From contig CAIQWN010000045.1 of NCBI GenBank assembly GCA_903875555.1, positions 1,535-65,534 of the forward strand: a stretch of DNA of 64,000 nucleotides, in the 5' to 3' direction. Shown in pieces: positions 2,382-50,012 of the stretch. Source of the stretch: an uncultured bacterium. GTDB lineage: Bacteria; Patescibacteriota; Minisyncoccia; Phycocordibacterales; UBA5272. Made by a program: the position numbers and the translations under genes. Below the pieces are notes generated by a model, which saw nothing but the letters and a program-made list of their open reading frames with translations, was not told the DNA's origin and searched no databases. Positions within the stretch are counted from its first letter, which is position 1. Every line of letters starts with the position of its first letter.

Positions 2382-3038
2382 TTATGACAGTATCTTCATT
2401 ACAACAGAAAACAAAAAAGGTGCCACATAAGAAAAAATAGTCGAAGCAACAATAATCGCAATAATTAAATACACTGGATTATAAACAACATTCGAAAAAC
2501 TATTTCTCAATCTTGGAAATAATGATTGTAATATAGACATTCCATCAAACGGTGGAATCGGCATCAAGTTAAACAAAGCGAGAGAAATATTTACACCTAT
2601 AATTGTAAACAAGGCACTACTTAATTTCATATCCAACATTCCATTTACAGAAAATACTTTAAAAAATATCATCGCTAATATAGCAAGTAAAATATTAGCG
2701 ATAACACCAGCAGCCGAAACAAATGTTTCTCCATACTTTCCTTCTACATTTCTTATGTTCACTGGTACGGGTTTTGCCCAACCAAGAAACATTCCAGACA
2801 TTGTAAATGAAAGTATCGGCACAAGAATTGAGCCAACAATATCAATGTGTGGAATCGGATTTAAAGTAAGTCGTCCCATTCTATAAGCAGTTTCGTCCCC
2901 TAAGATATAAGCAACGTATCCGTGCGCCACCTCGTGAATAATTATAGAAAATAAAATAACTAATATCGGAAAAATTGACTGAAAAATATTTAATGTGTCT
3001 AACATTCTTAAATAATACCACGAAATGAATTTTGTCAT
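2382..3038 (-). CDS. site-2 protease family zinc metalloprotease (peptidase M50)
   Basis: HEVAHG (HExxH) within a TM helix, polytopic membrane protein, about 218 aa. Confidence 0.75.
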   Translation of the reverse strand: MTKFISWYYLRMLDTLNIFQSIFPILVILFSIIIHEVAHGYVAYILGDETAYRMGRLTLNPIPHIDIVGSILVPILSFTMSGMFLGWAKPVPVNIRNVEGKYGETFVSAAGVIANILLAILAMIFFKVFSVNGMLDMKLSSALFTIIGVNISLALFNLMPIPPFDGMSILQSLFPRLRNSFSNVVYNPVYLIIAIIVASTIFSYVAPFLFSVVMKILS

Positions 3039-3062
3039 TCCTGCGAAAGCAGGAATCTAGTG
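3034..3062. repeat. palindromic dispersed repeat, copy 1 (GTCATTCC-TGC-GAAA-GCA-GGAATCTAGTG)
   Basis: gtcattcctgcgaaagcaggaatctagtg: 8-bp stem with a GAAA loop and conserved flanks gtc / ctagtg. Related copies lie at 5626, 23577, 49601 and 49984. Confidence 0.8.
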
Positions 3063-3162
3063 TGTTTGGTTTTCCTTACTTCGTTCTGCTTACTACACAC
3101 CACTTTTTCTATTGCATCTAAAATAAAATTGTGATAATATACCTAAACTAATCAATAAATCT

Positions 3163-3366
3163 ATGGCAAGCACATGTCCACTATGTCTAAAAGGTTCAAA
3201 AGTTGTTGGAAAATATAGCAACTCTGTTCGTGCTACAAAGTTTAATCCTTGTGGTGATCGTCGCGTATACCCAAACCTACAATGGGCTCGTATTCCAAAT
3301 GGACCTCGTGTAAAGATCTGTACTTCTTGTATGAAGCGCGGTCTACACCTACAGATTAAACTATAA
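3163..3366 (+). CDS. rpmB: probable 50S ribosomal protein L28 (bL28), zinc-ribbon form
   Basis: 67 aa, MASTCPLC...NSVRATKF...PNLQWARIPNGPRVKICTSCMKRG aligns with bL28 (C..TGK..GN.RSHA.N..KR...NLQ.VR....G..KRV.V....LKSG); four Cys. Confidence 0.5.
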   Translation: MASTCPLCLKGSKVVGKYSNSVRATKFNPCGDRRVYPNLQWARIPNGPRVKICTSCMKRGLHLQIKL

Positions 3367-3386
3367 GTTTAATCAACCAAAATTTA

Positions 3387-3413
3387 AAAGCGACACCCAA
3401 CGGTGTCGCTTTT
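3387..3413 (+). terminator. intrinsic terminator after the bL28 gene
   Basis: gcgacacc-caac-ggtgtcgc hairpin followed by ttttaaatttttt. Confidence 0.55.
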
Positions 3414-3428
3414 AAATTTTTTATATAA

Positions 3429-3932
3429 ATGTTAGGATTCCAATATTCGCTCACTTACAAGAAAGGTTGGAAAGGAAATATGAAAAAAATTATTTCTGGT
3501 ATGTTTTTGCAAGAGGTGCTGCTTCCAGCTATTGGATACGACACAGGAATTGGTGAAGTTGTTGTTATTCAACCAAAACAATTACAGCAAATGTTCACTG
3601 GGGTAATTTTCCCAAGGGAAGAGATTCATTTGTACGACGGTGTCAATGGTTATATTTTTGATGCGTATGGCGTTGCTTTTGTTTACAGTTTTGAAGAAAA
3701 CGAGACTTCACTTTCGTTCACAAAACAATATATGAACAGACAAGATTCAATCGACTACCACTTCAACAAGAAAGAAGGTAACGAGTGGATTGGCACATTT
3801 AACGGTAAAGCAACGGGAGCAGGATACTCCAGCTGTGTAATAAATGTCGTGTCGGATAAATTTCTTGATAGTAGCAGATTTGCTGACATACCACTTCCAC
3901 CAACCTCCGTAAATTATGTAAACATCACTTGA
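3429..3932 (+). CDS. hypothetical protein (likely start at MKKIIS, about 3480)
   Basis: 167-aa ORF with no recognisable motif; followed by overlapping hairpins at 3945-3990. Confidence 0.35.
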   Translation: MLGFQYSLTYKKGWKGNMKKIISGMFLQEVLLPAIGYDTGIGEVVVIQPKQLQQMFTGVIFPREEIHLYDGVNGYIFDAYGVAFVYSFEENETSLSFTKQYMNRQDSIDYHFNKKEGNEWIGTFNGKATGAGYSSCVINVVSDKFLDSSRFADIPLPPTSVNYVNIT

Positions 3933-4011
3933 ATTGTATGAGTAAAACCTCGCAACGAAACCACTTGTTGTGAGGTTTCGTTGTTTTTAACTAATTACCA
4001 ATGATCAATTA

Positions 4012-5625: not shown

Positions 5626-5654
5626 GTCATTCCTGTGGAAACAGGAATCTAGTG
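5626..5654. repeat. palindromic dispersed repeat, copy 2
   Basis: gtcattcctgtggaaacaggaatctagtg: the stem carries compensatory changes (tgt/aca) relative to copy 1. It lies between convergent gene ends. Confidence 0.8.
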
Positions 5655-6127: not shown

Positions 6128-7636
6128 CTAATACTTAATCACCACAAACTCTTCACCGTCCTCATCTACATATTTCTCTTCTTCCAATTTATTTTTCAAA
6201 ATAAAGTATAAAACCACAACCAAAACATAAATCAAAAACATAAACGATGAGGACAAATTACTTTGTATGTACGAAAACGGAAGTGAAGCAAAAAATGTCG
6301 CAATTAAAATAATAAATTTAAGAAGTAACGTTGTCACAAATCCAAAAATAACAGTAAGAAAAACACTTACAAATGAAAACAAAATCACCAAAGTAGAAAA
6401 TAACATTGCGACAGGAACAATCGGCACAATAATTAAATTCGTAATCAAAGAATAAATAGAAATAAATCCAAATGTGTAAATAATATATGGAAGAGTCGCA
6501 ATTGTTGCAGAAAGTGTCGTACTCAAAACCTCTTTCATAAATCTTAAATGTTTAAATCTCTCTAAAGATTTTGTAATTAATGGTGACAAATAAACAATTC
6601 CTGCTGTCGCCAAAAAAGAAAGATGAAATGAAACATTATCCAAAATAAAACTCGTATCGTAAATCACCATCACAAAAAGTGAAAGTATCAATGCTTGCTT
6701 CGAAACATATTCTCTTCCAGAATAAAGTGCAAGAAGTGAAATAAGGGCCATAACAAAAGCTCGCACAGCACTCGCTTCTGCTCCAACCATAATCACAAAC
6801 ATAAAAGTAAACAATCCGGTAAATAAAATTCTTAAAGTAAAAGGTAGTAAAGAGAACAACAAAAGCAGAAAAGAAACAACAATCGCAATATTAAAACCAG
6901 AAAGAACAACAATGTGCGATATTCCAGCAACACGAAACAAATCTTTCATCTCTTTCGAAAAATCATTACTTCCAAAAAGCATTCCGTTGGCAAGTGGCGA
7001 CACATCAGCACTTATATATTTATTTACACGAGAAATAAAATTATCTTTAACTGTGATTAATTTATAAATAAACTTGTTTGATATTTCTCCTTCCTTGTCT
7101 ATTTTTGGAAAAAACATTTCACCTTTTATTCCACGAGTTTTTAAATAATTATTATAATCAAAAGATTTTTTATTTACTTCTGTTGGAAGCAAAATATCAC
7201 TTTCTTTTATTTCTCCATCGATTGTAATTCTCTCGCCTGCTTTAAATTCTGGATATAAAGAAGTTTTTACTAATACATTAGCATAATTATTATTTTCTTT
7301 ATATAAAGTTATTTCAACTTCTTGATAATTATCTTTTTTAACTGGTGTATCAACTACTTCTCCATAAACAATACATTTGCTTTCGCAACTAAATATTTCT
7401 TTTTCAACCGCAAACTGATGACGAGCAACTCCAAGAAACAAACCAGAGCAAACCAACATTGTAATTAGTGGAACAATATAACTTTTCTCTTTTTTCTTAA
7501 AAACAAAAAATAAAATAGCCTGTACAAGCAAAACAACAAAAGAAAAAATTGCAATCTCCGTCGAGAATTGCAATTTTTCGGAAATAAAAATACCAACAAC
7601 GAAACTTAAAACAAAAATAACTGTTTTAACATGCAT
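6128..7636 (-). CDS. comEC: ComEC/Rec2 DNA-uptake channel, N-terminal DUF4131-like plus competence polytopic membrane domain (no lactamase domain in this ORF)
   Basis: 502 aa; N-terminal TMs, an OB-like region, then a multi-TM competence domain (GISHIVVLSGFNIAIV...). The lactamase domain is encoded separately at 4012-4995. Confidence 0.65.
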   Translation of the reverse strand: MHVKTVIFVLSFVVGIFISEKLQFSTEIAIFSFVVLLVQAILFFVFKKKEKSYIVPLITMLVCSGLFLGVARHQFAVEKEIFSCESKCIVYGEVVDTPVKKDNYQEVEITLYKENNNYANVLVKTSLYPEFKAGERITIDGEIKESDILLPTEVNKKSFDYNNYLKTRGIKGEMFFPKIDKEGEISNKFIYKLITVKDNFISRVNKYISADVSPLANGMLFGSNDFSKEMKDLFRVAGISHIVVLSGFNIAIVVSFLLLLFSLLPFTLRILFTGLFTFMFVIMVGAEASAVRAFVMALISLLALYSGREYVSKQALILSLFVMVIYDTSFILDNVSFHLSFLATAGIVYLSPLITKSLERFKHLRFMKEVLSTTLSATIATLPYIIYTFGFISIYSLITNLIIVPIVPVAMLFSTLVILFSFVSVFLTVIFGFVTTLLLKFIILIATFFASLPFSYIQSNLSSSFMFLIYVLVVVLYFILKNKLEEEKYVDEDGEEFVVIKY

Positions 7637-8649: not shown

Positions 8650-10407
8650 TTAAATTACACCAATAATCCTCAGCCTCAATTCCACTTTTCCTCGCCAATA
8701 ACTCTTTTCTAAATTTGCAATCAGTTTATGTTCCTTTTTTAATTTTTCTTCTAATTCATCATCAACAAAAAATTTAATTGCTTTAATTTGTTTAACTCCA
8801 TCATCACCGCGCCCCGTCGTAGCTTTATGCGAAGTGGGGTAAATCACTTCAATATGCTCACTCTTCTTTCCAAACCTCCTCACACTAATCGCTTTTACTC
8901 TTGGAAATGAAAAAATTGGTTTTGGGTTACCAACACCAAAAGGAGCAAGTACGCTCATTGCTCCATAGGTTATCTCGTTAACATCATTAAAAGAAATTTC
9001 TTCATCAATCAACACTTCTCCATTGCCAATTTCTTTTCTTTTAACACGTTCAATCGCCTCATTCAAAACTTTTAACAATTTATCTTTATTTTCTTTCAAA
9101 AAAGAAAATCCACCTGCCTGCTCATGCCCACCAACACCAATGAAAATATCTCCACACACTCTCATCAAATCAACAACATGAATATCTCCAAGTGAACGAC
9201 AAGATCCCTTCAAAATATTTTCATCTTCCCCTTGCCCCCAAACAAAAGTAGGTTTTCCAGTTTCTTCAATTATTTTTTGTGCAATGAGACCAAGAAGCCC
9301 AGGACCCCAACTAATATCACCAACCACAATTACTTTTTCTTTATAAACAGCATGATCAAAAGAAATCGTAGACAAAATATCTTTTACTCCTCCTTTCCTT
9401 TCATTATTCAAAACCTCAAGATCAAGAACAAGATGCTCAGCAAGCAAATTATCTTTTTCATAAAGCATATTATGCGCTTGCATAGGATGACCCATTCTAC
9501 TTGCTGCATTTATTCTAGGTGCAATAGTAAAAGAAATATCTTCTTCTGTTAAATTATCTTTTATTACTCCTTGATTTCTAAAAATATGATTAAGTCCATA
9601 TCTTTTTGTTTTTTGTAAAACTTTTAATCCAAAATATACGAGTGTTCTGTTTTCTTTCACAAGTGGAACCATGTCGGCCACTGTAGATATAGCAACAAGA
9701 TCAAGCCACCACTTTTCAAAACCTTCTGGAAGTTCATAGACTTTCTGTAAAACAATACTATACGCGTTTTGTTTCTTTCCTTCTTCTAATTTTTTACTTT
9801 TTACTTCCTCTTTCAATTTTACAAGAATCGCACAAGCAAGCTTCCAAACAACCGCACAACCACATAGCATATCATCATAATAATTACATTTATCTTGTTT
9901 CGAATTAAGAATACAATACGCTTCTGGTAATATTTGTTTTTTATTTTCACTCAAAGGCAAATGGTGATCTGTTACTATTACATTTATTCCAAAATCTTCT
10001 GCATATTTAACTTCATCAACATTTGTAATTCCAGAATCAATAGTAATTAACAAAGTCACTTTATCTTTTTTAAATTTATCAATCACTTTTTTGTGTAAGC
10101 CATATCCTTCATTATGACGATGAGGAATATAAATATCTACATTACCATAACCAATTGTATTAAAAAAATCTCGTAGCAAAACACCACCAGGCACACCATC
10201 GCAATCATAATCACTATAAATAACCACCTTCTCTTCATTTTTTATCGCCTTAATAATTCTTTTGACTGCTTTTTCCATTCCATAAATCAAAAATGGATCA
10301 CCAATACCTATTTCATAAGATGGATTTAAAAATTTTTCTATTTTATCACCAACAACCCCCCTATTTTCAAGAAGTTTTAAAGTTAATGGATGTAAATCTT
10401 TTATCAT
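8650..10407 (-). CDS. recJ: single-stranded-DNA-specific exonuclease RecJ
   Basis: DHH motifs (YSDYDCDGV; ITIDSGI; TDHH) plus a DHHA1-like C-terminus. Confidence 0.8.
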   Translation of the reverse strand: MIKDLHPLTLKLLENRGVVGDKIEKFLNPSYEIGIGDPFLIYGMEKAVKRIIKAIKNEEKVVIYSDYDCDGVPGGVLLRDFFNTIGYGNVDIYIPHRHNEGYGLHKKVIDKFKKDKVTLLITIDSGITNVDEVKYAEDFGINVIVTDHHLPLSENKKQILPEAYCILNSKQDKCNYYDDMLCGCAVVWKLACAILVKLKEEVKSKKLEEGKKQNAYSIVLQKVYELPEGFEKWWLDLVAISTVADMVPLVKENRTLVYFGLKVLQKTKRYGLNHIFRNQGVIKDNLTEEDISFTIAPRINAASRMGHPMQAHNMLYEKDNLLAEHLVLDLEVLNNERKGGVKDILSTISFDHAVYKEKVIVVGDISWGPGLLGLIAQKIIEETGKPTFVWGQGEDENILKGSCRSLGDIHVVDLMRVCGDIFIGVGGHEQAGGFSFLKENKDKLLKVLNEAIERVKRKEIGNGEVLIDEEISFNDVNEITYGAMSVLAPFGVGNPKPIFSFPRVKAISVRRFGKKSEHIEVIYPTSHKATTGRGDDGVKQIKAIKFFVDDELEEKLKKEHKLIANLEKSYWRGKVELRLRIIGVI

Positions 10408-11991: not shown

Positions 11992-12063
11992 GCTTTCGTG
12001 GTGAAATGGATATCACATCGGTCTTCGGAACCGTTGTTCCAGGTTCGAATCCTGGCGAAAGCA
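11992..12063 (+). tRNA. tRNA-Arg (anticodon TCG, tentative)
   Basis: Hand-folded cloverleaf: acceptor gctttcg/cgaaagc, D-stem gtga/tcac, anticodon loop cTTCGga, T-arm ccagg-ttcgaat-cctgg. The anticodon stem has a U27-U43 mismatch. No CCA is encoded. Confidence 0.55.
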
Positions 12064-12141
12064 CAAACTCTTTTTAATTTTTATCCTATTTTTTACTTTC
12101 AATTCTCGTATCTCACACAAATACATCGAATTATTCTTTTG

Positions 12142-12212
12142 TGCGGCGTACGAGAATCGAACTCGTGTCTCATCCTTGGCAAGGACGTATTCTACCACTA
12201 AACCAACACCGC
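12142..12212 (-). tRNA. tRNA-Gly (GCC)
   Basis: Minus strand reads GCGGTGTTGGTTTAGTGGTAGAATACGTCCTTGCCAAGGATGAGACACGAGTTCGATTCTCGTACGCCGCA. Confidence 0.85.
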
Positions 12213-12315
12213 GAATAATAATTATATTATCACAAATAAAAGTAAATAAAAAGCTAATATATTGCTACTGTTTATTTTAAAAACCATTAAAAATAAATAG
12301 TATACTATGAAAAAC

Positions 12316-12346
12316 TGTGGATAAACCTGTGGTAACTGTTGATAAG
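12316..12346 (+). promoter_or_regulatory. cluster of three tandem DnaA-box-like motifs (TGTGGATAA, TGTGGTAA, TGTTGATAA)
   Basis: cTGTGGATAAac cTGTGGTAAc TGTTGATAAg at about 11-bp spacing; the first is a perfect DnaA box. Confidence 0.35.
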
Positions 12347-12505
12347 AGACAGTAAAATACATATGAGGCAAACTATACAGACATTGCCCTTAATTGTGAA
12401 ATATCATTGTAAACTAAGGATATTTCACAAAAAGACTGACTCTTTTATAAAGGAAAATCTATAAACGTGTCACGTGAAACGTTTCATAAGAAACGAATAA
12501 TAAAA

Positions 12506-12892: not shown

Positions 12893-12945
12893 AAAGGTAG
12901 TAATTGTAGAAAAATATGTTAGAATTAGATTTAGTTTAGATATTT

Positions 12946-13018
12946 CGGAGTGTGGTGTAACGGCTAACATTCTGGTTTTGGGTACCAGCGACTCAGGGTT
13001 CGAATCCCTGCACTCCGA
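12946..13018 (+). tRNA. tRNA-Pro (TGG)
   Basis: CGGAGTG acceptor start typical of tRNA-Pro, anticodon loop tTTGGGt, T-arm cagggttcgaatccctg. Confidence 0.8.
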
Positions 13019-38695: not shown

Positions 38696-40633
38696 ATGAC
38701 AAAATACGTAATCGGACTTAACGAAAGACAAAAAGACGCTATTAAATACACTGAAGGACCATTACTTATTTTGGCTGGGGCTGGGGCTGGGAAAACTAAA
38801 ACCATAACTGAAAGAATTGTTCAAATAATTAAAAACGGGGTAAACCCAACAAATGTTTTAGCGGTAACTTTTACAAATAAAGCCGCAAGTGAGATGCGTG
38901 AAAGAATTACTCATCGATTAATAGAAGAAAAAATTGCTGAAATTAATCAATACGTTGAAAAACCTATAATAAAAACTTTTCACTCTCTCGGACTTATGAT
39001 GTTATCTGAACAAAGTGAAAATGTGGGATTACACAAACACCCAACAATACTCGATTCGTCTGATTCTCTTTCTATAATAAAATCTGCTTGTGAAAAATTA
39101 GGAGTTGATACTAAGACACATGACCCATCAAAAATAAGAAACATTATCTCACGAGAGAAAGGTGACTTTACTTCTGTGTCTGAATACGAAAAAAAGGTAG
39201 TGAGCGCACAAATGGAAATAGTATTATCTGTGTGGCGACTTTATGAGGAGGAATTAAAAAATCAAAAAGCAGTAGATTTCGATGATTTAATTATAAAAAC
39301 TGTTTTAATGTTAGAAAAATACAAAAATATAAGAGATTACTATCAAGATAGATTTAAATATATACATATAGACGAGTATCAGGATACCAATGCTGCACAA
39401 TATGCTTTGGTTAAATTATTGGTCAACGAAAAAACAAATAATCTTTGTGTGGTGGGGGACACTGATCAAAATATTTATTCTTGGCGAGGAGCAAATCTAA
39501 AAAACATAATGAATTTCGAACATGATTTTCATAATACAAAAATTGTTTTACTTGAAGAAAATTATCGCTCTACAAAAAATATTCTTTCTCTTGCTAATAA
39601 TACAATTAAAAAAAATACTGTTCGTAAAGATAAAAATTTATTCACTTCAAAAGAAGAAGGGGACAAAATAGAAATTTGTCCTGCGTGGGATGAGGGAAGT
39701 GAGGCAGAAATGATTGCCAAAAAATGTAAAGATTTATTAGACAGGGGTGTTGATGGGAAAAATATAGCTATTTTATATAGAGCAAATTTTCAATCGCGAG
39801 TTCTTGAAGAGTTTTTTATAAAAGAAGGGGTTGAATATAACTTATTAGGAACAAAATTTTTTGAGAGAAAAGAAATTAAAGATGTAATGAGTTATTTACG
39901 TGCAGCACTCAACAGGGATTCACAGCCAGATTTAAAAAGAGTTTTTGATACACCCAAAAAGGGAATAGGTAAGACGAGTGTGTTAAAAATTTTTACAGGT
40001 GAGGAGTTACCGCCAAAAACACAAATAAAAATAAATAATGTTTATGAGTTTTTAGATAAAATAAAAACACTACTCGACACAGAAAAACTTTCTCATATCA
40101 TGCAAATGATAATTGTTGATTCTGGAATGGAAAAAGAAATGTTGGAAGGAAGTGACGAAGACAAAGAAAGACTAGAGAACGCGCGCGAACTTGTTTCTTT
40201 CACTTTAAAATATGATGAAAAGGTGGCAAGTGAAATCATTCATGAGTTTCTAGAAGAGGTAGGACTTATGAGTGACCAAGACAATGACAAAAAGGAGCAT
40301 AATGGGGTCAGACTTATGACTGTTCATTCATCTAAAGGACTCGAGTATGATTATATTTTTATTTCTGGGTTAGAACAAGATTTATTCCCACATAAAAATA
40401 TCGGTAATAAAAAAAGAGGTGTTGAGGAAGAGGAAGAAGAGAGAAGATTATTTTATGTGGCGGTTACTCGTGCTAAAAAAGTTCTGTATCTTTGTTATGC
40501 GGAATTAAGAACAATATTCGGGCAAAAACAAATTAATGCTCCGAGTGAATTTCTAGAAGATGTACCAGAAGAAATTAGAAATGACAACGATTTGTATTAT
40601 AAACAAAACGGTGGTAAGGTGGTTTACATATAA
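38696..40633 (+). CDS. UvrD/PcrA/Rep family ATP-dependent DNA helicase
   Basis: Walker A AGAGAGKT; motifs TFTNKAA, DEYQDTN, VGDTDQNIYSWRGA and VHSSKGLEYD. Confidence 0.85.
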   Translation: MTKYVIGLNERQKDAIKYTEGPLLILAGAGAGKTKTITERIVQIIKNGVNPTNVLAVTFTNKAASEMRERITHRLIEEKIAEINQYVEKPIIKTFHSLGLMMLSEQSENVGLHKHPTILDSSDSLSIIKSACEKLGVDTKTHDPSKIRNIISREKGDFTSVSEYEKKVVSAQMEIVLSVWRLYEEELKNQKAVDFDDLIIKTVLMLEKYKNIRDYYQDRFKYIHIDEYQDTNAAQYALVKLLVNEKTNNLCVVGDTDQNIYSWRGANLKNIMNFEHDFHNTKIVLLEENYRSTKNILSLANNTIKKNTVRKDKNLFTSKEEGDKIEICPAWDEGSEAEMIAKKCKDLLDRGVDGKNIAILYRANFQSRVLEEFFIKEGVEYNLLGTKFFERKEIKDVMSYLRAALNRDSQPDLKRVFDTPKKGIGKTSVLKIFTGEELPPKTQIKINNVYEFLDKIKTLLDTEKLSHIMQMIIVDSGMEKEMLEGSDEDKERLENARELVSFTLKYDEKVASEIIHEFLEEVGLMSDQDNDKKEHNGVRLMTVHSSKGLEYDYIFISGLEQDLFPHKNIGNKKRGVEEEEEERRLFYVAVTRAKKVLYLCYAELRTIFGQKQINAPSEFLEDVPEEIRNDNDLYYKQNGGKVVYI

Positions 40634-40639
40634 CTATTT

Positions 40640-41425
40640 ATGAAACCAAAAAAGTCATTTGGGCAAAACTTTTTAACATCTATTCCGGCAAGGAACGAGA
40701 TTGTAAAAGCGGGAGATTTAAAATTGGGAGATGTTGTTTTAGAAATTGGTCCAGGAAAAGGAATTCTTACAGAAAAAATGTTAGAGGAGGGAGCAACAGT
40801 TTACGCGGTTGAAAAAGACAGGGAGTTAATACCAATACTTACAGAAAAATTTGCGAAGAACATTAAGGAAAGTAAGCTAATTTTAATAAACGACGATATT
40901 TTGAATTTTAGTTTTGAAAACTTAAAATTAAAAATTATAAATTATAAATTAATTGCTAATATTCCATACAACATAACTGGTGCAATCATAGAAAAATTTT
41001 TAAGCGAGGAAAACAAACCAAATTTGATGGTTATACTTGTGCAAAAGGAAGTTGCAGAAAGGGTCGTGGCACGAGACAATAAAGAATCTATACTTTCTCT
41101 TTCGGTAAAAGTTTATGGTGAACCAAAAATTATTTATAAAGTAAACAAAGGGAGTTTTTTTCCTATTCCAAAAGTAGATAGTGCTGTTTTAAAAATTTCT
41201 AACATATCGGACAGAAATTTTGAAAATAAAAAACACAAAAAAAACTTTTTCAAAGTTGTTAAAGCCGGGTTTTCTCATAAAAGAAAGTTTTTGATTAGTA
41301 ATTTGAAAGAAAAGATTCCTGAAATAAATTGGTATGAGGCATTTACTAAAAATAATTTAAATGAAAAAACAAGAGCCGAAGATATAACTTTAAAAAACTG
41401 GCTCATGATTTCTAAAAATATTTAA
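40640..41425 (+). CDS. rsmA: 16S rRNA (adenine1518/1519-N6)-dimethyltransferase
   Basis: FGQNFL and LEIGPGKG motifs; 261 aa. Confidence 0.9.
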   Translation: MKPKKSFGQNFLTSIPARNEIVKAGDLKLGDVVLEIGPGKGILTEKMLEEGATVYAVEKDRELIPILTEKFAKNIKESKLILINDDILNFSFENLKLKIINYKLIANIPYNITGAIIEKFLSEENKPNLMVILVQKEVAERVVARDNKESILSLSVKVYGEPKIIYKVNKGSFFPIPKVDSAVLKISNISDRNFENKKHKKNFFKVVKAGFSHKRKFLISNLKEKIPEINWYEAFTKNNLNEKTRAEDITLKNWLMISKNI

Positions 41426-41450
41426 TTACAGGCCCGGCCTGTAATTTCTT
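41424..41450 (+). terminator. intrinsic terminator
   Basis: ttacaggcc-cg-ggcctgtaa followed by tttctt. Confidence 0.5.
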
Positions 41451-41486
41451 AGGACTGTGGAAAAGAAAAGGGGATTAAAGTGATCG

Positions 41487-42458
41487 GTGGTTTATAATGA
41501 GTCTATGGACATGACAAATATTAAAAATAGAATTCTTTTAGTGTGTGGATTTTTTGTAATAGTTTTAATAATTGTTTTTTTGTTTTCAAAAAACTTATTT
41601 GGTAGTAAAAAAGTGACGAACACTAATTTAGGACAACAGAATGATTTGTTGGTTATCCAAAAAATAGAGGGAGGGGATTTGAATGCCGACACCGACGGTG
41701 ACGGACTTAAAAATTGGGAAGAAGCTTTGCTGGGAACAAATCCTAATATTAAAGATAATCCAAATCAAAACATAGAAGGTTCGACTAGTCCTCAATTCAC
41801 TCCGATTGCAAAAGATGATCCATTAAATGATGTAAACAACCTAACGGCACAATTTTCAAAAAATGCATACACAATGGCTAGTTATTTAAACTCAAATGGT
41901 GTGAGTGATAATCAAACCATAGACGAAGTAAGTAAAGGTTTAATTTCTGGAGAAATAACAAAGTTGCTTATCAAAAAATACACAGTAGATGATTTAAAAA
42001 ATGTAGACAAAAACGATACAACAACCTTAAAAAATTATGGCAATCAACTAGCAAATTATGTTGATACCTCTTTCAAGATTATCTTAAACATAGACGAAGA
42101 AAAAATTCTAAACACTTACACTCAAAGTAAAGACGCAAAAGATCTTAGTAAATTAAAAACAAAAATTGATTCTTTGGAAACATTACAAAGTAATTTGAAA
42201 AATATGATCGTTCCAAAAGTTGCTGCCCAAAATCATTTGAATATTTTAAATAGCACAGCATCTTATATCGCTATTTTAAAAAATATAAACACCGTAAACA
42301 CAGACCCTATAAGAGCAGTTGTTGGATATAAAGCGCTTCCACAAATTCTTTTAAATTTCTTTAATAATTTTATTGATCTTAATAAATTCTTTAAAGAAAA
42401 TAAAGTTACTTTTTCAAATAATGAAAAATGGTTCGTGTTTATTAATAAAACAAAATAA
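41487..42458 (+). CDS. membrane-anchored secreted protein with a Ca-binding-like DTDGDGLKNWEE motif (T4SS-like locus)
   Basis: N-terminal signal anchor, D.DGDG..N.EE.L.GTNP thrombospondin-type-3-like repeat, Asn/Thr-rich. Confidence 0.4.
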   Translation: MVYNESMDMTNIKNRILLVCGFFVIVLIIVFLFSKNLFGSKKVTNTNLGQQNDLLVIQKIEGGDLNADTDGDGLKNWEEALLGTNPNIKDNPNQNIEGSTSPQFTPIAKDDPLNDVNNLTAQFSKNAYTMASYLNSNGVSDNQTIDEVSKGLISGEITKLLIKKYTVDDLKNVDKNDTTTLKNYGNQLANYVDTSFKIILNIDEEKILNTYTQSKDAKDLSKLKTKIDSLETLQSNLKNMIVPKVAAQNHLNILNSTASYIAILKNINTVNTDPIRAVVGYKALPQILLNFFNNFIDLNKFFKENKVTFSNNEKWFVFINKTK

Positions 42459-42464
42459 AATTAT

Positions 42465-44546
42465 ATGAAAAAAATTCTTCCAATTTTAATAATTACATTA
42501 TCTATGTCTGTTGGTTTTACACCAACAAAAGCACTTGGAGATATAGTTGAGTGTGTAAACTGTTCTGAGGTTGGTACACAAAATACTTCTTGGTTTGAAC
42601 AAAAACTACAATCTATTCAAGACAAAATGAACATGGGGGCTAACGTTGAAAAAAATGTAAAAAGTAGTATTACCGATCCAATAATGAACGCGCTTCTCTC
42701 TTCTGCGATAGACACAACAAAACAATCACTAAATAATTGGATACAAGGAGGTTTCCAAGGTAACCCGCTCGTAGCTATAAAACCAGAAACTTATTTAAAC
42801 AATGTTGGGAAGAATGTAATCAGAATTAAAATAGGGGAAATATCTAATTCTACAGACAAAAATAAGGGGACTGTTATAAAAAATATTGTTTATAGTGAAA
42901 GAGCAAAACAAAAAAGTATAACAGAGAGAACACAGTCTACACTCGCATCAGATATTAGACAAGACACCTGTACGGATTCAAATCTTAGTAACTACGCAAC
43001 CAAATCTATTACATCACTAGCGGATACTAATTCTCTTTTCTATAAAAACTGTATAAACAATGGAGGAAGTGCAGATACTTGTGATCAAGGTCGTGCTAAT
43101 TTAAACGCTGAAAGTGATGCAACACTTAGTAGTCGCATAGCAGCAAGAAAAAAACAGCTCTATGACAGTCTGTGTCCGCCAGATAAAGAACAAGCCCTGC
43201 TTGATTGTTACTATAATGATAGAAGTGGTCTATGTTTTTCTATGACTGCTTGGGTAGATACCAATCCAAACAACACAGTAGATGGACACACTGCCGAAGT
43301 TGCAAGACTTACAGACGAAGCTGCAGCTGCAAAAGTTGCTCTTGCTGCAAACGATACAAAAGATGGATACATTTCTCAAAAAGATTCTAACGGAAACATT
43401 ATTACACCAGCAGCCATCGTAGCAGAAACTGATAAAATAATTTCTACTGAGTCATCAAAAAGTGCTTTCTATAAAAGTGGTAGTGATTTAACTACTTCAC
43501 TTATTAATAAATTAATAAAAGGTGGACTTAGTTTTCTTAGTAAACAAACAAAGGGGACACTTGCTCAAAGTGGTATAAACAGTACTGTTTTAGATAATTT
43601 TGGTGATTTTGGTAACCTTAATGGGATAGATCTCAATAAAATATTACTATCGGGACAAACCCAAAGTACAGTAAAAGCAATTTATCCAGCAGGAAGCTGT
43701 GGTGCTGACGATCAATGTTATTCAGGATGTATACAAAGCGGACAAATTATTTATCCAGACGGAGTATGTGACACGGTGACGAGTTCTGGTGGTTATAGTT
43801 GTAAATCACAAGATTGTATAACAAAATGTTCCGGTATGATGCAACTTGTAAATAATATTTGTTCTATAAAACCAGCAAGCACCACAGGAAATGACTCTGG
43901 GTCAAACATGTTAGCAGATATGACAAACGATGAGCACGACGCTTTAATTAGTCCAATGCTTAATCGTTTAACATTAGACATCAAAACATTTTCAGCGATA
44001 GTGAATGCTTATGGCACATACACAAGTGATGTTGGTAATTATGTTAATCAAATACAAAACGCTGCTTTGGTTGGATGTTATACACAAATACAAAATGGTG
44101 CTGATACTTATAAAAACCAAGTTGATCAATATAAGAAAAAACAAGTAACCGATCATTACAACTCGCTACTATCAACTTACCAAGGAAATATAAGTGGTTG
44201 GAAATCAAATCTGGATAATCGTTTAAATTATTTAAAAAATATAAAAGCTGGTATAGACGACACAATAAATCAAAGCAATAATGGTATTTCTCGTGCAAAC
44301 AGCACTATTCAAAAATTAATCACATCACGAAACAAAGAAGAAATTAATACTACCTACTTCTCATATAATGACACAACTGGAAACTCTCCAACTGCTGGCT
44401 CTGAAGGTCTTGTTGAACCAAAAAAATTAGAATTGCAATATAATGTCTCAACTTATAACACAGACACTTTGGCACCGATGACTAATAGTTGTAATCAAAT
44501 TAAAAATACAATAGACCAAGATATGGCGAGTTTCATACAACATTAA
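42465..44546 (+). CDS. large secreted Cys-rich protein (T4SS-like locus)
   Basis: Signal peptide MKKILPILIITLSMSVGFTPTKALG; 693 aa with about 30 Cys and a Ser/Thr/Asn-rich composition. Confidence 0.45.
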   Translation: MKKILPILIITLSMSVGFTPTKALGDIVECVNCSEVGTQNTSWFEQKLQSIQDKMNMGANVEKNVKSSITDPIMNALLSSAIDTTKQSLNNWIQGGFQGNPLVAIKPETYLNNVGKNVIRIKIGEISNSTDKNKGTVIKNIVYSERAKQKSITERTQSTLASDIRQDTCTDSNLSNYATKSITSLADTNSLFYKNCINNGGSADTCDQGRANLNAESDATLSSRIAARKKQLYDSLCPPDKEQALLDCYYNDRSGLCFSMTAWVDTNPNNTVDGHTAEVARLTDEAAAAKVALAANDTKDGYISQKDSNGNIITPAAIVAETDKIISTESSKSAFYKSGSDLTTSLINKLIKGGLSFLSKQTKGTLAQSGINSTVLDNFGDFGNLNGIDLNKILLSGQTQSTVKAIYPAGSCGADDQCYSGCIQSGQIIYPDGVCDTVTSSGGYSCKSQDCITKCSGMMQLVNNICSIKPASTTGNDSGSNMLADMTNDEHDALISPMLNRLTLDIKTFSAIVNAYGTYTSDVGNYVNQIQNAALVGCYTQIQNGADTYKNQVDQYKKKQVTDHYNSLLSTYQGNISGWKSNLDNRLNYLKNIKAGIDDTINQSNNGISRANSTIQKLITSRNKEEINTTYFSYNDTTGNSPTAGSEGLVEPKKLELQYNVSTYNTDTLAPMTNSCNQIKNTIDQDMASFIQH

Positions 44547-44611
44547 ACACAAACAACGGTTCAGGGTACAGTAATTACTACAACCCTAGATAGCAACTAA
44601 GAATAAGAAAC

Positions 44612-44659
44612 AAAATAATACTAGTGGCGAAAGATTACTTTCGCCACTAGTATTATTTT
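44612..44659. terminator. perfect 22-bp-stem hairpin (aaaataatactagtggcgaaag-atta-ctttcgccactagtattatttt)
   Basis: Read directly between two operons of the T4SS-like locus. Confidence 0.55.
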
Positions 44660-44716
44660 GTTTCAACCAACCATTTCTCTAACATTTCCCTAATATTTTT
44701 ATGTTACAATAATGAA

Positions 44717-47485
44717 ATGAAAAAGGGTTTTATTTTCCTTCTTTTAGTCATATCTTTTGGTGTGTTTGGTGTGGGGAAGGTGAATGCAGATGCAACACTA
44801 GATACATTAAACGAGAAATTAGACTGGAATCGTGGTACCTATAATAGTTGTATACAAAATAGAGTCAAACTTGAAACTAACTGTGCTGCACAACTTACTG
44901 CTTTTACTACAGCATATAACAATGTTTTAAATTATGATGGTGTGTCTGCGTCTTTGAAAGACACTATGTCTATGTCTCTAAAAACTTACACTGACTGTAT
45001 GGATCGTAACAAACAAGATATCAGTAAATGCCAAAACGAACTTAACCATCTTCAAAATGTTAACACTGCTATTAATAATGTAGAAGGAACAAATAATGCG
45101 CCTAAAGATATCTATGCTGACTGTAACAATAAAACGGGAGCAGAGGCCTCGTCATGTAGAGCAAACGCTCTCGCTTTAGATTGTAGAAACAGTAATTACG
45201 GTAGTAATATTCCAAAAGCTTGCAAAACTATACTAGAAGGTCAAGACAATGCAACAAAGACACTACTCAACGAGCAATTAATAGCAAATAAAAAAAATAA
45301 TCCTTGTGGTGTAAGTTTTATTCCTGGCATAGACTCTTTTAACCTAATAGACTGTGCTGATTCTCTTGTTACTAAATTCATACAATCAACCCTAATCAAA
45401 TACGCACAAATCCTTCTTTATTTTGCCGCCATGACACTTAATGAATCTATACGTTTTGCAATTTTTGATGCTAACGGTAGTGTGTCTCATGTTATTACAG
45501 AACTATATCCTGTGTGGCAATTAATAAGACAACTGGTTGATTATTGTGTTTTGTTTGCGACTCTTTATCTTGGGGCAATGTACATTATGAATATTGAAGC
45601 AGGAAAACAATTTATAGAAAAGCATGTCCCTTGGCTTATTTTGTTCGCTTTGTTTGTTAACTTTTCATATCCAGCAACAAAGGCCATGAAAGACGTCTCT
45701 AATATTATTTCTCTAAAAATTTATGCTTCAACTGTTGGTGGGGAAGTGCTGAATGATAGATTTGGTGCGGGTAATATTATAATGAGTAGTCTTGGTTTGC
45801 CAAGCTTAGTTGGCACAGTAACAGACTCAGGAGGAACATTAGGAAGTAGTGGTGCTGATATTTTAAAAAACACAACAAGCACAATACCATCGCTACTAGT
45901 GTTTGTTATGATAATGTTTATTGCTTTTATTTTTATAATTATTGCTTTCCTAATGATTATGAGTAGTATTGTTTGTGTTTTTATAATTACAGTCTCTCCT
46001 ATTTTATTAATACAAAAAATAATACCAAAACTGGACAACCTTGCTTCAAAAATAAGAGAAGAATTTTTTAATGCTCTTGCCCTACCTGTTGTTTTTACTT
46101 TAATGTTTTTCTTAACAACACAAGTAATAACAAAACTTGCACCATCTCTTCCAAGTTCGTCAGGAGCAGGAGGGCCTACTCTTGTTGTACAAATATTTAA
46201 TGTGGTTTTGATGACTATTTCCTTATGGATAATGTTTAAGGCTACAAAATCTGTAAGCGGAACATTTGGTAAGACAGTAGAAGAATGGGGAGGGAAAGCA
46301 GCTGGTCTTGCCATGATGGCAACACCCGCCATGGCAATGAGAGCAACCGCAGGAAGACTGGGCGCAGGAATGTTAAATTCAAACACAGCTATTGGTGGAT
46401 GGATTGATAAAAACAGAGGAACAATGCTTGGAGACTCATTTCATAAACTTGGCGGAGGTCTTGCGACTAGCACTTTTGATATGAGAAATGCTAAAGGTAT
46501 GCGAGAGTTGGGAGGCATGGGAGGAATTAAAGAAATGGGAACAATGGGAAGTAAAGAAACATTTAAAAACACACTAGACACAAAAGGAAGAAAGCTCGCA
46601 AAAAATGTTGGAGAAACAAAGAGCGAAGAAGGGAAGGAGAGACTACTTAGAAATGTAGGGAAGTATTCTTTGATGTCTCACGAACAAGATTATCTTCGAG
46701 AACAATTAAATAAAAACACAAACATAGTAACTGGGGAGAAAAAACGTGCTAATTATGACAAATCTTCGGTAGGCGAACAATATAAAATATTAAGTGACGA
46801 CCAAGAAGAAGCAATGAAAATAAACAAAGGAATAAAGGATGGAAAAATTACTACAGCCGAAGCTTCAAACGGACCAAAAACAAATTCAGGTTACAAAATG
46901 GGCAATGTCGTTCTTCCGGAAGATAGAAAAAAAGAAGAAAATCAAAAAGAAAAACTAAATAAAAAAATAGAAAATATTTCAGAAGAATATAAAAAAGCAG
47001 CAGGGGAAGACAAACAAAAAATTTATGAAAAACATTCAAATTACAGCGACTCAAAAGACATCCACGAGGCCTTGCAAAACATAGATAGAAACGACACAAA
47101 AAACACTTTCGAATATGACAACAAGAACACATTCGAGGGAAATATAGGGACTGTGCACGATGAAGCAAACAAAGAACATGAAGAGAGAAGAAGAGAAGAG
47201 GTGCAAAATAAATATAACGAGCTTTCTGGTGAAAATAAACAAACATACCACGAATCTCTTTCTCCTGAGGACAAAGAGATGTTAAAATCAAATGACGAAG
47301 AAGAAGCGCATAACACTACTGATAGTTCTTGGGATATGAAGCAAGAAGCTAAACACGATTATCTTTCTCATTTACAAAAACTTCATAAAGAAAATGAATC
47401 AGTTAAAAAAGAAAGTGAAGACTTTGCAACAAAATTTGTAAAAGGAGCACCAAGCGAAAGAAACAGCTTCGAAAAAGCAGCTTAA
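44717..47485 (+). CDS. VirB6/TrbL-like (PrgH/TcpH-type) polytopic membrane protein with N-terminal secreted Cys-rich domain and C-terminal charged tail
   Basis: Signal peptide, ~180-aa Cys-rich extracytoplasmic domain, at least 6 TM helices, Gly-rich segment (GGMGGIKEMGTMG), then a K/E-rich ~300-aa tail. Confidence 0.5.
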   Translation: MKKGFIFLLLVISFGVFGVGKVNADATLDTLNEKLDWNRGTYNSCIQNRVKLETNCAAQLTAFTTAYNNVLNYDGVSASLKDTMSMSLKTYTDCMDRNKQDISKCQNELNHLQNVNTAINNVEGTNNAPKDIYADCNNKTGAEASSCRANALALDCRNSNYGSNIPKACKTILEGQDNATKTLLNEQLIANKKNNPCGVSFIPGIDSFNLIDCADSLVTKFIQSTLIKYAQILLYFAAMTLNESIRFAIFDANGSVSHVITELYPVWQLIRQLVDYCVLFATLYLGAMYIMNIEAGKQFIEKHVPWLILFALFVNFSYPATKAMKDVSNIISLKIYASTVGGEVLNDRFGAGNIIMSSLGLPSLVGTVTDSGGTLGSSGADILKNTTSTIPSLLVFVMIMFIAFIFIIIAFLMIMSSIVCVFIITVSPILLIQKIIPKLDNLASKIREEFFNALALPVVFTLMFFLTTQVITKLAPSLPSSSGAGGPTLVVQIFNVVLMTISLWIMFKATKSVSGTFGKTVEEWGGKAAGLAMMATPAMAMRATAGRLGAGMLNSNTAIGGWIDKNRGTMLGDSFHKLGGGLATSTFDMRNAKGMRELGGMGGIKEMGTMGSKETFKNTLDTKGRKLAKNVGETKSEEGKERLLRNVGKYSLMSHEQDYLREQLNKNTNIVTGEKKRANYDKSSVGEQYKILSDDQEEAMKINKGIKDGKITTAEASNGPKTNSGYKMGNVVLPEDRKKEENQKEKLNKKIENISEEYKKAAGEDKQKIYEKHSNYSDSKDIHEALQNIDRNDTKNTFEYDNKNTFEGNIGTVHDEANKEHEERRREEVQNKYNELSGENKQTYHESLSPEDKEMLKSNDEEEAHNTTDSSWDMKQEAKHDYLSHLQKLHKENESVKKESEDFATKFVKGAPSERNSFEKAA

Positions 47486-47494
47486 AAAAATAAT

Positions 47495-48220
47495 ATGAGC
47501 ACAGAAATATTAAATAAAATAAAAGACTCATTTATAAAAGCTTCTCCGGAAATAAGGGGAGTAATTTTGAGTGATGATTTAAATAATGTTGCCAAAGAAC
47601 TTGGTGAAAAATATAAAATTGGAATAAATCTTTATGTTGATCTAAAAAATATCACCATACTTGCATTGCTTGGAGAAATAAAAATGGAGGATCTTGCAAA
47701 TGAAATTAAAACAAAAATTGAAGTTGATGATAAAACAGCCGATGAAATAATTAAATACTTAGATCAAACTATTTTTGAAAAAGCTCGTATCTCTGTTGGG
47801 ACAAGTGAAGCAAAGCCAGAAACAAAACCCGTTGTTATTAAAGAAATAAAAATTGTAAATGATCCAATAAAAGCAAAACTACGCGAGCAATTAATGAATC
47901 ATCCTTTACCAAAAAATGAAAACACTGGAAAGAAAACAACTGGGGACGGCAATAGAGAGCATTTACTAGAAAAATTAAAAACTCTTTCAGAAATACCAAG
48001 CGACGAAAACATTGCTTCTAGATTAGAAAAAATTAGAGAACAAATAAAAACAATAAATTCTGAAACAAAAAAAACTGACTCTCCAGAATTAAAAGAGGAA
48101 GCTGTTGTTATGTTAGAAAAAGAAAGTGGAAGTGCTGTTGAAAATAAAATAAAAACTGCTCCATATAGTAAGCCACCAATTTCTTACAATATAGACCCCT
48201 ATAGAGAAGTTACTGAATAA
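47495..48220 (+). CDS. hypothetical cytoplasmic protein (T4SS-like locus)
   Basis: 241 aa, hydrophilic, no motif; starts 10 nt after the VirB6-like stop. Confidence 0.35.
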   Translation: MSTEILNKIKDSFIKASPEIRGVILSDDLNNVAKELGEKYKIGINLYVDLKNITILALLGEIKMEDLANEIKTKIEVDDKTADEIIKYLDQTIFEKARISVGTSEAKPETKPVVIKEIKIVNDPIKAKLREQLMNHPLPKNENTGKKTTGDGNREHLLEKLKTLSEIPSDENIASRLEKIREQIKTINSETKKTDSPELKEEAVVMLEKESGSAVENKIKTAPYSKPPISYNIDPYREVTE

Positions 48221-48325
48221 TATTTGACATTTCTATAAAAAATAGTAGTATAACGATTGGGCTTTAAATTTTAAAGACTGCTTTTTCAAATAACCCAGAT
48301 GTAAAACCAAACCGAGGGGGGTGAC

Positions 48326-49066
48326 ATGCCGAAAGACAATGTTATACCTCTCTTTGGGAGAGGTAAACCACAAGTACGTTCGACAAACAATAGAGATGAA
48401 CAAATAACTACAGCGTTAAGCAATCAACGATCTTTTAATTCTCTTGACGCTGCGTTTAGAATAGTAACCTCGAGCTCGTCACGATTAGATCTGGACGAGA
48501 CTGGACTTGGTACTGTAAAAATACTAAGCGAATCCACACTCGGGAAAATTCTTGATTTTTCATCAGAAAGGAGTAGGTTTGCTATTTTATGCGAACTTTG
48601 GAGTTTAAAAGAGTTCTTTACGATAGACGAGTCCAACAAACTTCTTGACTGTTTAAAAAGCAATGTACAACCAGACGAGAAGTTGACCAAAAAGTTTTTC
48701 GATAGTGATGTTTTTGCACAACTCTTGTGGTTAATGAAAAAACCAGGGTCTCATTTTCCTGTGGAGCGTTGTATTTCTGCAAACGAGATGAGAATTGATG
48801 TTTGCGACAAATTTGAAATAGCTTGTTACCAAACAACTCTTTATTACGAAAGAATGAACGGAGGAGTTAAAAACCCTGAAGATTTGTTTGTTAGCTCCTT
48901 GCTAGACTGGAACATTAAAAAAAGAATTCTTGCTGGCTTGGAACACAGTAGCTCTCCATTCATAGACGAAAAAACGTACCCTTCAGTGCAGTCTCAACTA
49001 AAAAACAACAAGGATGTGGTGCTGTCAGTAAGAAGCAACTACTTTATTGTTACAAAGAAACCCTGA
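48326..49066 (+). CDS. hypothetical protein with atypical (higher GC) composition
   Basis: 246 aa; a visibly GC-richer codon set (ccg, cga, ctc, gag), a strong gagggggg SD and a GC-rich terminator (cgccacctg...caggtggcg) at 49066-49100. Confidence 0.4.
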   Translation: MPKDNVIPLFGRGKPQVRSTNNRDEQITTALSNQRSFNSLDAAFRIVTSSSSRLDLDETGLGTVKILSESTLGKILDFSSERSRFAILCELWSLKEFFTIDESNKLLDCLKSNVQPDEKLTKKFFDSDVFAQLLWLMKKPGSHFPVERCISANEMRIDVCDKFEIACYQTTLYYERMNGGVKNPEDLFVSSLLDWNIKKRILAGLEHSSSPFIDEKTYPSVQSQLKNNKDVVLSVRSNYFIVTKKP

Positions 49067-49149
49067 CCGCCACCTGAATACCACAGGTGGCGATATTTTT
49101 ATGTGAACTCTCCACTTTCTAAGACTCTCTTTCTTGTTATACTATAATA

Positions 49150-49587
49150 ATGCAATTTAGGGTTCCACAATTCATTGATGTTGAAGATAAAATAATCGGC
49201 CCACTTACATTAAAACAGTTTGCTTATATTTTAGGTGCTGGTGGTTTTGCTTTTATTATTTGGACTTTTATAAGCATAAAAATTCTAGCGGTTATACTTA
49301 TAATTCCTCTTTCTGGATTATTTTTGTCGTTTGCTTTTCTAAAAGTAAACGGTAGGCCATCTATAGATGTTTTGGAACATGCTTTTAAATATTTTACTAA
49401 TGCTAAAATTTATACATGGAAACAACCAATACCAGAAACAAGAATAAAACAACCTGTTTCTCATTCAGAAAAAGCTGTTGCTGATATATCAAGAGAACTA
49501 TTAACAAAAAAAGTTGATTCTAACAAACTACACGATATATCATTTGGTCTTGATGTGTTAGACCGTAACCCACAAGAAAAAGAATAG
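49150..49587 (+). CDS. PrgI/TcpE (VirB3-like) family small membrane protein
   Basis: VPQFIDVEDKIIGPLTLKQFAYILGAGG followed by two TM helices matches the PrgI family N-terminal pattern. Confidence 0.45.
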   Translation: MQFRVPQFIDVEDKIIGPLTLKQFAYILGAGGFAFIIWTFISIKILAVILIIPLSGLFLSFAFLKVNGRPSIDVLEHAFKYFTNAKIYTWKQPIPETRIKQPVSHSEKAVADISRELLTKKVDSNKLHDISFGLDVLDRNPQEKE

Positions 49588-49600
49588 ACCGACTCCCTCT

Positions 49601-49662
49601 GTCATCCCTGCGAAGGCCGTCCACAGGTATCGACTCCTAATCAGTCGATCAGGGATCTGGTG
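49601..49662. repeat. palindromic dispersed repeat, copy 5 (long variant with internal 30-bp insert that is itself palindromic)
   Basis: gtcatccctgcgaagg...atcgactcctaatcagtcgat...cagggatctggtg. Confidence 0.65.
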
Positions 49663-49672
49663 TATTTTTGAA

Positions 49673-49957
49673 CTATAAATCAAAATATAAATCTCTCCAT
49701 TGTAAATTTGTCTTTTCAATTAATTTTACTTTCCATTCTCTTTTCCATGCTTTAAGTTGTTTTTCTTTTTTAATAGCACTTTCAATATTTTCTGTTTGTT
49801 CATACCAAACTAAATTAGTTATGTTGTATTCTTTTGTAAAACCTTCAACTACTTTTTCTTTGTGTTCATAAACCCTTCTTTTTAAATCATTGGTAACACC
49901 CACATATAAAGTTCCGTATCTTTTACTAGCTAAAATATATACACAGCATTGTTTCAT
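49673..49957 (-). CDS. small GIY-YIG nuclease family protein
   Basis: Starts at MKQCCVYILASKRYGTLYVGVTNDLKRRVYEHK...GFT (GIY-YIG core). The ORF-track N-terminal extension to 50068 runs through repeat copy 4. Confidence 0.7.
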   Translation of the reverse strand: MKQCCVYILASKRYGTLYVGVTNDLKRRVYEHKEKVVEGFTKEYNITNLVWYEQTENIESAIKKEKQLKAWKREWKVKLIEKTNLQWRDLYFDL

Positions 49958-49983
49958 TTTTATATTGTAACAAAATAATAAAC

Positions 49984-50012
49984 ACTGGATCCCTGCCTTC
50001 GCAGGAATGACA
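49984..50012. repeat. palindromic dispersed repeat, copy 4 (reverse orientation)
   Basis: cactggatccctgccttcgcaggaatgac. Confidence 0.8.

Follow-up and report, generated by a model that had tools for sequence, protein, structure and literature searches.

Probable Ssn-related motifs and a GIY-YIG nuclease gene form a discrete cassette in a patescibacterial genome

A family of five short, oriented hairpin repeats was found in a 64-kb stretch of contig CAIQWN010000045.1 (hereafter the window, meaning the whole stretch analyzed), together with a small gene, ssn, lying between two of the copies. With a probability of roughly 0.85, the repeats are Ssn-related motifs (SRM) of the Neisseria Transformation Sequence (NTS) type, and ssn encodes their cognate GIY-YIG nuclease of the Ssn family. 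The SRM/Ssn system itself has been known since 2025, and the element is accordingly not novel in kind, but its occurrence in bacteria of the Candidate Phyla Radiation (CPR, or Patescibacteria) appears to be undescribed in the literature searched. The window has a G+C content of 32%, and its CPR origin is indicated by the gene order and the 67-76% nucleotide identity that it shares with contigs of Candidatus Nomurabacteria. In related CPR genomes the gene and its flanking motifs form a discrete unit that occupies differing intergenic sites.

Results

Background to the Ssn/SRM system

The system was described in Neisseria by Chenal et al. (Nat Commun 2025; PMC11893778). In that work the NTS, CGTCATTCCCGCGMAVGCGGGAATCYRG, is an oriented extension of the dRS3 repeat, and the broader SRM flank ssnA, a 94-aa single-domain GIY-YIG gene, in many phyla. 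Purified SsnA bound the motif solely as single-stranded DNA (ssDNA), ignoring double-stranded DNA (dsDNA) and RNA, and cleaved only the sense strand a few nucleotides upstream of the motif, with hairpin and sequence both being required. SsnA reduced transformation by NTS-bearing DNA in Neisseria, and the catalytic residues mutated in N. meningitidis were Y6, Y17 and E64. Mobility of the cassette was put forward there as a hypothesis only. The Ssn family corresponds to the CDD entry cd10448. The family was also known from the reduced genomes of Wolbachia and Rickettsia (PMC11893778), so the view taken in a sequence-only reading of the window, that such elements are not commonly described in reduced genomes of this kind, holds at most for the CPR.

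The nuclease gene

The ssn gene (49673..49957, minus strand) is present once in the window and encodes a protein of 94 aa. Its sole Pfam domain is GIY-YIG (residues 4-76, E 1.4e-14). A gap-free alignment over 91 aa showed 60% identity to an SsnA orthologue from N. gonorrhoeae (E 7e-45, against a family criterion of E < 1e-10 in PMC11893778); the sequence used for this comparison is encoded on a chromosome filed as a plasmid in PLSDB and is not the N. meningitidis protein. Residues Y7, Y18 and E65 are spaced like Y6, Y17 and E64 of N. meningitidis SsnA. By sequence, the window protein is closely related to Neisseria SsnA and retains its catalytic residues. Homologues numbered 7163, mostly of 92-98 aa, and those from CPR bacteria were 54-66% identical to those from Proteobacteria, Nitrospirota and Chloroflexota. 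Searches of PDB, NCBIfam, PADLOC and PHROGs returned no informative match for the protein, and no specific NCBIfam model was found. Viral contigs held just three weak relatives, and phage carriage is therefore not supported.

The sequence-only reading had suggested that a transposase partner of the repeats be sought elsewhere in the genome; the partner is instead this GIY-YIG gene, which lies inside the very interval that it had described. The spacer between the upstream motif and the ssn ATG (49958..49982, minus strand) contains, just before the ATG, TTGTTACAATAT, which is conserved in the window and at the related loci L001, L007, L170 and L171. This sequence is probably an extended -10 promoter element, with a leader that would be very short or absent.

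Two observations concern the gonococcal material. PLSDB contains two 2.17-Mb N. gonorrhoeae chromosomes filed as plasmids. In N. gonorrhoeae locus L177 (NZ_CP119142.1:1880213-1883485) the ssnA orthologue lacks an ATG in frame where translation should begin (the one present is out of frame), and the gene may be frameshifted or use another start codon.

Repeat copies in the window

The degenerate pattern of the sequence-only reading, used as a search string for intact copies (GTCATYCCYGYGRARRCRGGRATYYRGTG), matched the window exactly four times, at 3034-3062 (+), 5626-5654 (+), 23576-23604 (-) and 49983-50011 (-), each match being 29 nt long. These are referred to as copies a, b, c and d. In 100 dinucleotide-preserving shuffles of the window the pattern was never matched. 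A fifth copy, e (49601-49663, +), keeps both arms, GTCATCCCTG...CAGGGATCTGGTG, and a 7-bp outer stem, with a loop longer by 34 nt; the insert holds a 7-bp hairpin of its own (ATCGACT...AGTCGAT). The family of five palindromic copies was thus confirmed, with corrections: the positions first assigned were right for the plus-strand copies and off by one for the minus-strand ones, and the insert in copy e had been put at 30 bp. The copies are not parts of longer duplicated segments, a possibility that had been raised at the outset.

The GTC and C..G flanks are invariant among the copies. The loops of the intact copies (GAAA, GGAA, GAAA and GAAG) are variable in relatives, and the tetraloop, earlier called GNRA-like, is not strictly GNRA. 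When folded as ssDNA, copies a-c form an 8-bp hairpin (z of -3 to -5), and the outer stem of copy d is weakened by a T.G wobble at stem position 3. A covariance model made from 26 distinct copies and run over the 64 kb with filters off recovered the four intact copies (47-52 bits, E 1e-13 to 1e-14) and gave no other credible hit. The reverse strand of these copies scored only about 10 bits, and the motif is therefore oriented rather than a plain palindrome.

Copies a, b and c are solitary; d and e stand on either side of ssn. A position between convergent gene ends, earlier given for most copies, applies to b and c alone, with b (stem ATTCCTGT/ACAGGAAT) placed between VTT-domain and NUDIX genes. 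Copy a (GTCATTCCTGCGAAAGCAGGAATCTAGTG) is at the 5' end of an M50 peptidase gene, whose first in-frame ATG is supplied by the ATGAC on the strand opposite the motif, as the reported overlap with the start codon had implied. The longest open reading frame (ORF) of this gene (2382-3038, minus strand) begins at that ATG, with a second in-frame methionine 11 codons downstream, and the repeat may have given rise to a spurious annotated start. Immediately beside copy c, the interval separating the NUDIX gene from the trigger-factor gene holds a strong hairpin of 19-20 bp (23509-23550) that resembles a bidirectional terminator. Separated from copy d by 10 nt, on its outer side, is a relic half-motif, GTTATCCCTGC (50022..50032, minus strand). 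Its pairing with the right arm of d, GCAGGGAT, would be perfect, whereas d's own left arm forms the T.G wobble with that arm, and the half-motif may be the footprint of an insertion or repair event.

Translation through the motif does yield the spurious peptide VIPAKAGIQCL, as had been pointed out. Such read-through explains spurious peptides of the 'VIPAKAGIQ' and 'HSRESGNP' types and false N-terminal extensions in annotation; no mention of motif-derived peptides was found in the literature.

Relationship to NTS and dRS3

Copy c is identical to the NTS consensus at 27/28 positions, and in the other copies the departures from NTS are confined to paired changes in the stem and a single base of the flank. 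The window shares with the NTS/SRM-SsnA system the motif layout (GTCATTCC-stem-loop-stem-GGAATCYRG), the intergenic location of copies, the presence of motifs on both sides of the gene, and a 94-aa single-domain GIY-YIG protein with the same catalytic Tyr/Tyr/Glu spacing. It differs in its host, a Nomurabacteria-like CPR bacterium, a group that is not mentioned in PMC11893778. An exact dRS3 repeat of Neisseria (ATTCCC-N8-GGGAAT) is contained in copy c (ATTCCCGCGAAAGCGGGAAT), whereas the other window copies have ATTCCT or ATCCCT arms, and the definition of dRS3 does not include oriented flanks. The published degenerate SRM pattern matched one of the five window copies, copy c (0.06 expected). 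By this comparison of sequences, the copies other than c are near variants of the motif and not textbook SRM members.

Covariation of the stem

Compensatory changes were present among the five window copies at position 6 (T-A/C-G), position 8 (C-G/T-A) and position 3 (T-A / T.G / C-G). A larger set of 26 distinct 33-nt copies was collected from the window and related loci by scanning for sequences in which the five outer pairs form. Because the three inner pairs played no part in this selection, they provide a fair test of covariation. Across the set, 208/208 cells were paired, with double-sided changes in 6/8 pairs and 34 compensated cells; none of 500 shuffles reached this level, and pairing fell to 18-50% in slid registers. 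The three inner pairs were paired in every copy, with 24 double changes. Covariation, first noted in five copies, holds across the 26, and the stem is under selection for pairing via compensatory changes. Covariation by itself does not discriminate between RNA and ssDNA, and it is the enzymology of the homologues that favours ssDNA. The emphasis of the sequence-only reading on 'RNA or cruciform' was misplaced, as characterized family members bind the hairpin as ssDNA and not as RNA or dsDNA (PMC11893778).

Association of motif and gene across phyla

The covariance model was also run on 432 kb surrounding 80 ssn homologues from Alpha-, Beta- and Gammaproteobacteria, Nitrospirota, Dehalococcoidia, Bacteroidota, Omnitrophota and several CPR groups, and it gave 124 hits. 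An equal 432 kb of CPR loci, picked by a neighbouring TraC-like gene and not by ssn, gave 11, of which 9/11 fell in two contigs of one ssn-bearing genome. The commonest layout was a sense copy just upstream of ssn and an antisense copy 10-20 nt past the stop codon. By hand count, hits lay on both sides of the gene at about 27/80 homologue loci; SRMs flank ssn on both sides in the window (copies d and e) and at L001, L007, L008, L170 and L171. Variants with longer stems or long loops and the same outer arms were common, and copy e is therefore within the range of the family. The inserts in long-loop copies (copy e of the window and L007) are not common to different loci.

Two further loop sequences were seen. 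Upstream of ssn, L120 (Betaproteobacteria) and L161 (Nitrospiraceae) carry 54-nt long-loop SRM variants with the same inner sequence, ATTCGAGGGCAGGCTCC. At L007, a 16-bp perfect palindrome, TCCGCCAGCTGGCGGA, is present in the loops of both ssn-flanking SRMs (302-317 and 657-672) and as a solitary copy at 9904-9919; it may represent a second small palindrome family nested in SRM.

The cassette and its insertion sites

The two motifs and the gene make up a cassette of 411 bp (49601..50011, minus strand) with the arrangement SRM(+)-ssn-SRM(-) and GTCAT at both outer ends. Copy d forms its upstream end, in sense orientation with ssn, and copy e its downstream end, inverted relative to d. The cassette lies between a PrgI-family gene (ending at 49587) and a TraC-like gene (starting at 50127), and accounts for 411 bp of a junction of 540 bp. 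The median gap between the PrgI and TraC-like genes in 68 related contigs is about 35 bp; ssn is absent from all of these junctions, and an SRM pair is present only in L025/L026.

Cassettes whose Ssn is 75-84% identical to that of the window were found at four different intergenic sites: PrgI|TraC in the window and L169 (the same organism), 272-aa gene|PrgI in L001-L006, KsgA|UvrD in L007, L008, L171 and L172, and DnaJ|DnaK in L170. The organism of the window also occurs in ENA samples ERZ18647913 and ERZ18648719. The UvrD-KsgA spacing in the window is 6 bp. The cassettes of L001 and L171, which occupy differing sites, are 92.6% identical over 378 bp, with flanking genes 76-81% identical, and the borders of this alignment are sharp, starting at T|GTCAT and stopping at ATGAC|AA. 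SRM-ssn-SRM is a discrete unit, inserted relative to orthologous junctions at differing intergenic sites in related CPR genomes.

Gene-less forms were also present. A 62-bp head-to-head double SRM (GTCAT...CCAGTG-GA-CACTGG...ATGAC) occurs at L001:9392-9458 and L008:10370-10436, with 98.5% identity over 67 bp, in genomes whose genes are 67-75% identical; the L008 copy adjoins ssn. The PrgI|TraC junction of the L001 type, which is filled by the cassette in the window, holds this 62-bp double SRM without a gene. One 19-kb contig carries four identical solitary copies at separate loci. From these comparisons we infer that the cassette is mobile now or was so recently, and the solitary 29-nt copies and head-to-head double SRMs would be its gene-less derivatives or its landing sites. 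A double SRM was also seen at L001:4743-4819.

Discussion

Weight of the assignment

Several observations weigh against reading the window repeats as SRM borne on a mobile cassette. Copies a, b, d and e fail the published SRM pattern, at S positions only, with T-A pairs where G/C is demanded; with 4/5 copies off the pattern, the specificity of the window enzyme could therefore differ. Motif density in the window, at five copies in 64 kb, is low next to that of Neisseria or Wolbachia. The arrangement here is strictly sense upstream and antisense downstream, whereas around Neisseria ssnA the antisense copy is upstream and the sense copy downstream. No target consensus was seen at cassette borders beyond a 5' T. 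Purifying selection on Ssn could explain part of why the cassette is better conserved than the adjoining genes; however, L001 and L171 also share about 97% identity in the non-coding ends of their cassettes. Finally, each strand of a cassette has only one sense-oriented motif, so that the activity known for the enzyme family suggests no simple route of excision.

Proposed mechanism

By analogy with the characterized homologues (PMC11893778), the sense strand of each motif would fold into a hairpin once the DNA is single-stranded, as could happen at replication forks or after DNA uptake. Ssn would bind the stem and the non-palindromic flanks and cleave the ssDNA on the 5' side of GTCAT, a few nucleotides away, sparing dsDNA, RNA and the antisense strand. 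As the sense-oriented motif of each cassette strand stands at the 5' end of that strand, Ssn would nick just outside each end of the cassette, on opposite strands.

Cleavage by GIY-YIG enzymes is hydrolytic and is not known to pass through a covalent intermediate. Hydrolytic nicking of one strand at each end would fit repair or recombination copying of a homing-like kind better than cut-and-paste or HUH-style 'peel and paste' transposition. The gene-less double motifs at the PrgI|TraC junction would suit as a landing site for copying of this kind. The resemblance to GIY-YIG homing endonucleases of the I-TevI type extends to the catalytic domain and to selfish-gene-like cassettes at varying loci. 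Ssn differs from them in having no separate DNA-binding domain, in targeting ssDNA hairpins, in lying outside any intron or intein, and in matching nothing in NCBIfam or PHROGs.

A stronger proposal is that the cassette is an unrecognized kind of autonomous mobile element, some 380-410 bp long with borders at T|GTCAT...ATGAC|A, with an ssDNA-hairpin-specific GIY-YIG nuclease as its sole gene, which makes no target duplication, spawns solitary 29-nt hairpins and 62-bp pairs, and crosses phyla. We put this forward tentatively and rate its chances at slightly under even. If true, the CPR contigs would provide the first clear filled-site/empty-site evidence for the hypothesis advanced in PMC11893778. 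The comparative evidence for mobility in any case goes past that published hypothesis, since it supports by comparison what had there been supposed.

Alternative explanations

The system may instead be a domesticated host function that no longer moves, the differing cassette positions being the marks of old events. The experimental role in Neisseria (PMC11893778), the single ssn copy in the window, and the genes for ComEC, RecJ and a ComM-like ATPase in the window, which make imported ssDNA plausible, all speak for such a function. A fixed function would not readily account for a sharp-bordered cassette 92.6% identical at different loci in genomes otherwise 76-81% identical, for four insertion sites among close relatives, or for identical solitary copies at several loci of one 19-kb contig, and we think it unlikely, if still a serious candidate. 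The host-function and mobile views are compatible, as a mobile cassette can also restrict ssDNA.

That the repeats act at the RNA level, as intrinsic terminators or as stabilizing or regulatory hairpins at transcript 3' ends, is improbable. The hairpin is stable, two copies lie between convergent genes, and the G.T pairs in the covariation set (2/208 cells) are both on the sense strand. Yet no copy is followed by a T-run (the tails are CTAGTGT or CCAGTGT) and none was called terminator-like, copy c already adjoins the separate strong bidirectional terminator, and copy a is at a gene start. Rfam searches of the window at gathering and E-value thresholds returned four tRNAs only and no match on the repeats, and SsnA binds no RNA (PMC11893778). 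Nor would an RNA role explain why the non-palindromic flanks are conserved or why the motif is so tightly linked to a DNA nuclease.

A further alternative, which has very little to commend it, is that the repeats are repetitive extragenic palindromic (REP) elements, or bacterial interspersed mosaic elements (BIMEs) built from them, spread by a REP-associated tyrosine transposase (RAYT), an enzyme of the IS200/IS605-like Y1 type. The logic is analogous: both systems have short, oriented extragenic hairpins read as ssDNA, an enzyme gene between inverted copies, and head-to-head clusters, so that the double SRMs resemble BIMEs. However, the flanked gene here encodes a hydrolytic GIY-YIG protein and not a Y1/HUH enzyme that acts through a covalent intermediate, and no Y1 transposase match was obtained in a Pfam scan of 30 window ORFs (29 of them non-ssn), unscanned ORFs not being covered. 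REP heads are reportedly of the GTAG type, and the head of the window motif is GTCAT. Of the REP/MITE-like label given in the sequence-only reading (MITE, miniature inverted-repeat transposable element), the dispersed, oriented hairpin family tied to a dedicated enzyme survives, that enzyme being a nuclease; the Y1/RAYT partner and the combination of terminal inverted repeats with target-site duplications do not.

MITEs belonging to an ordinary DDE insertion sequence, or operators bound by a dimeric regulator of dsDNA, would be palindromic too, and the 62-bp double units look MITE-like, but such readings are scarcely credible for a solitary unit of just 29 nt with no associated transposase and with no direct repeats seen at the borders of six cassettes or of solitary copies. 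The free covariation of the stem also runs counter to the constraint expected from a dimeric regulator that reads the sequence.

Significance

The assignment of the repeats to the SRM places the Ssn/SRM system in ultra-small CPR bacteria, which depend on imported DNA, and in a window that encodes ComEC. A nuclease that cuts marked ssDNA could shape DNA acquisition by these bacteria. The related CPR contigs offer clean borders, empty sites and multiple insertion sites, which makes it directly testable whether, and in what way, a hydrolytic GIY-YIG enzyme spreads its own gene and its hairpins.

Genomic context

The gene for ComEC (Competence and DUF4131 domains; 6128-7636, minus strand) lies about 470 bp from copy b, that for RecJ occupies 8650-10407 (minus strand), and that for the ComM/YifB-like Mg-chelatase-type ATPase 33603-35153 (plus strand). 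The presence of these genes, which serve in taking up DNA and processing ssDNA, suggests that uptake of ssDNA, the Ssn substrate in Neisseria, is plausible here.

The cassette is located within a conserved, type-IV-secretion-like block that is syntenic in about 70 metagenome contigs. The block (38696-49066 and 49150-52593) encodes UvrD, KsgA, five proteins without a convincing Pfam match, PrgI, a TraC-like protein and a VirB4/TraG-like ATPase; of the five unmatched genes, one has a marginal TSP3 repeat hit and another encodes 922 aa. From UvrD to VirB4/TraG, this is probably a patescibacterial type IV secretion cluster.

Elsewhere in the window, four tRNA genes (Arg-TCG, Gly-GCC, Pro-TGG and Gly-TCC) lie at 11992-13183. 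The region 57046-59743 contains dnaA and dnaN, recognized by similarity to L001, with RNase P and YidC genes upstream, and G+C is 27.8% in the interval 56-60 kb. A replication origin is probably located near 56.8-57.0 kb.

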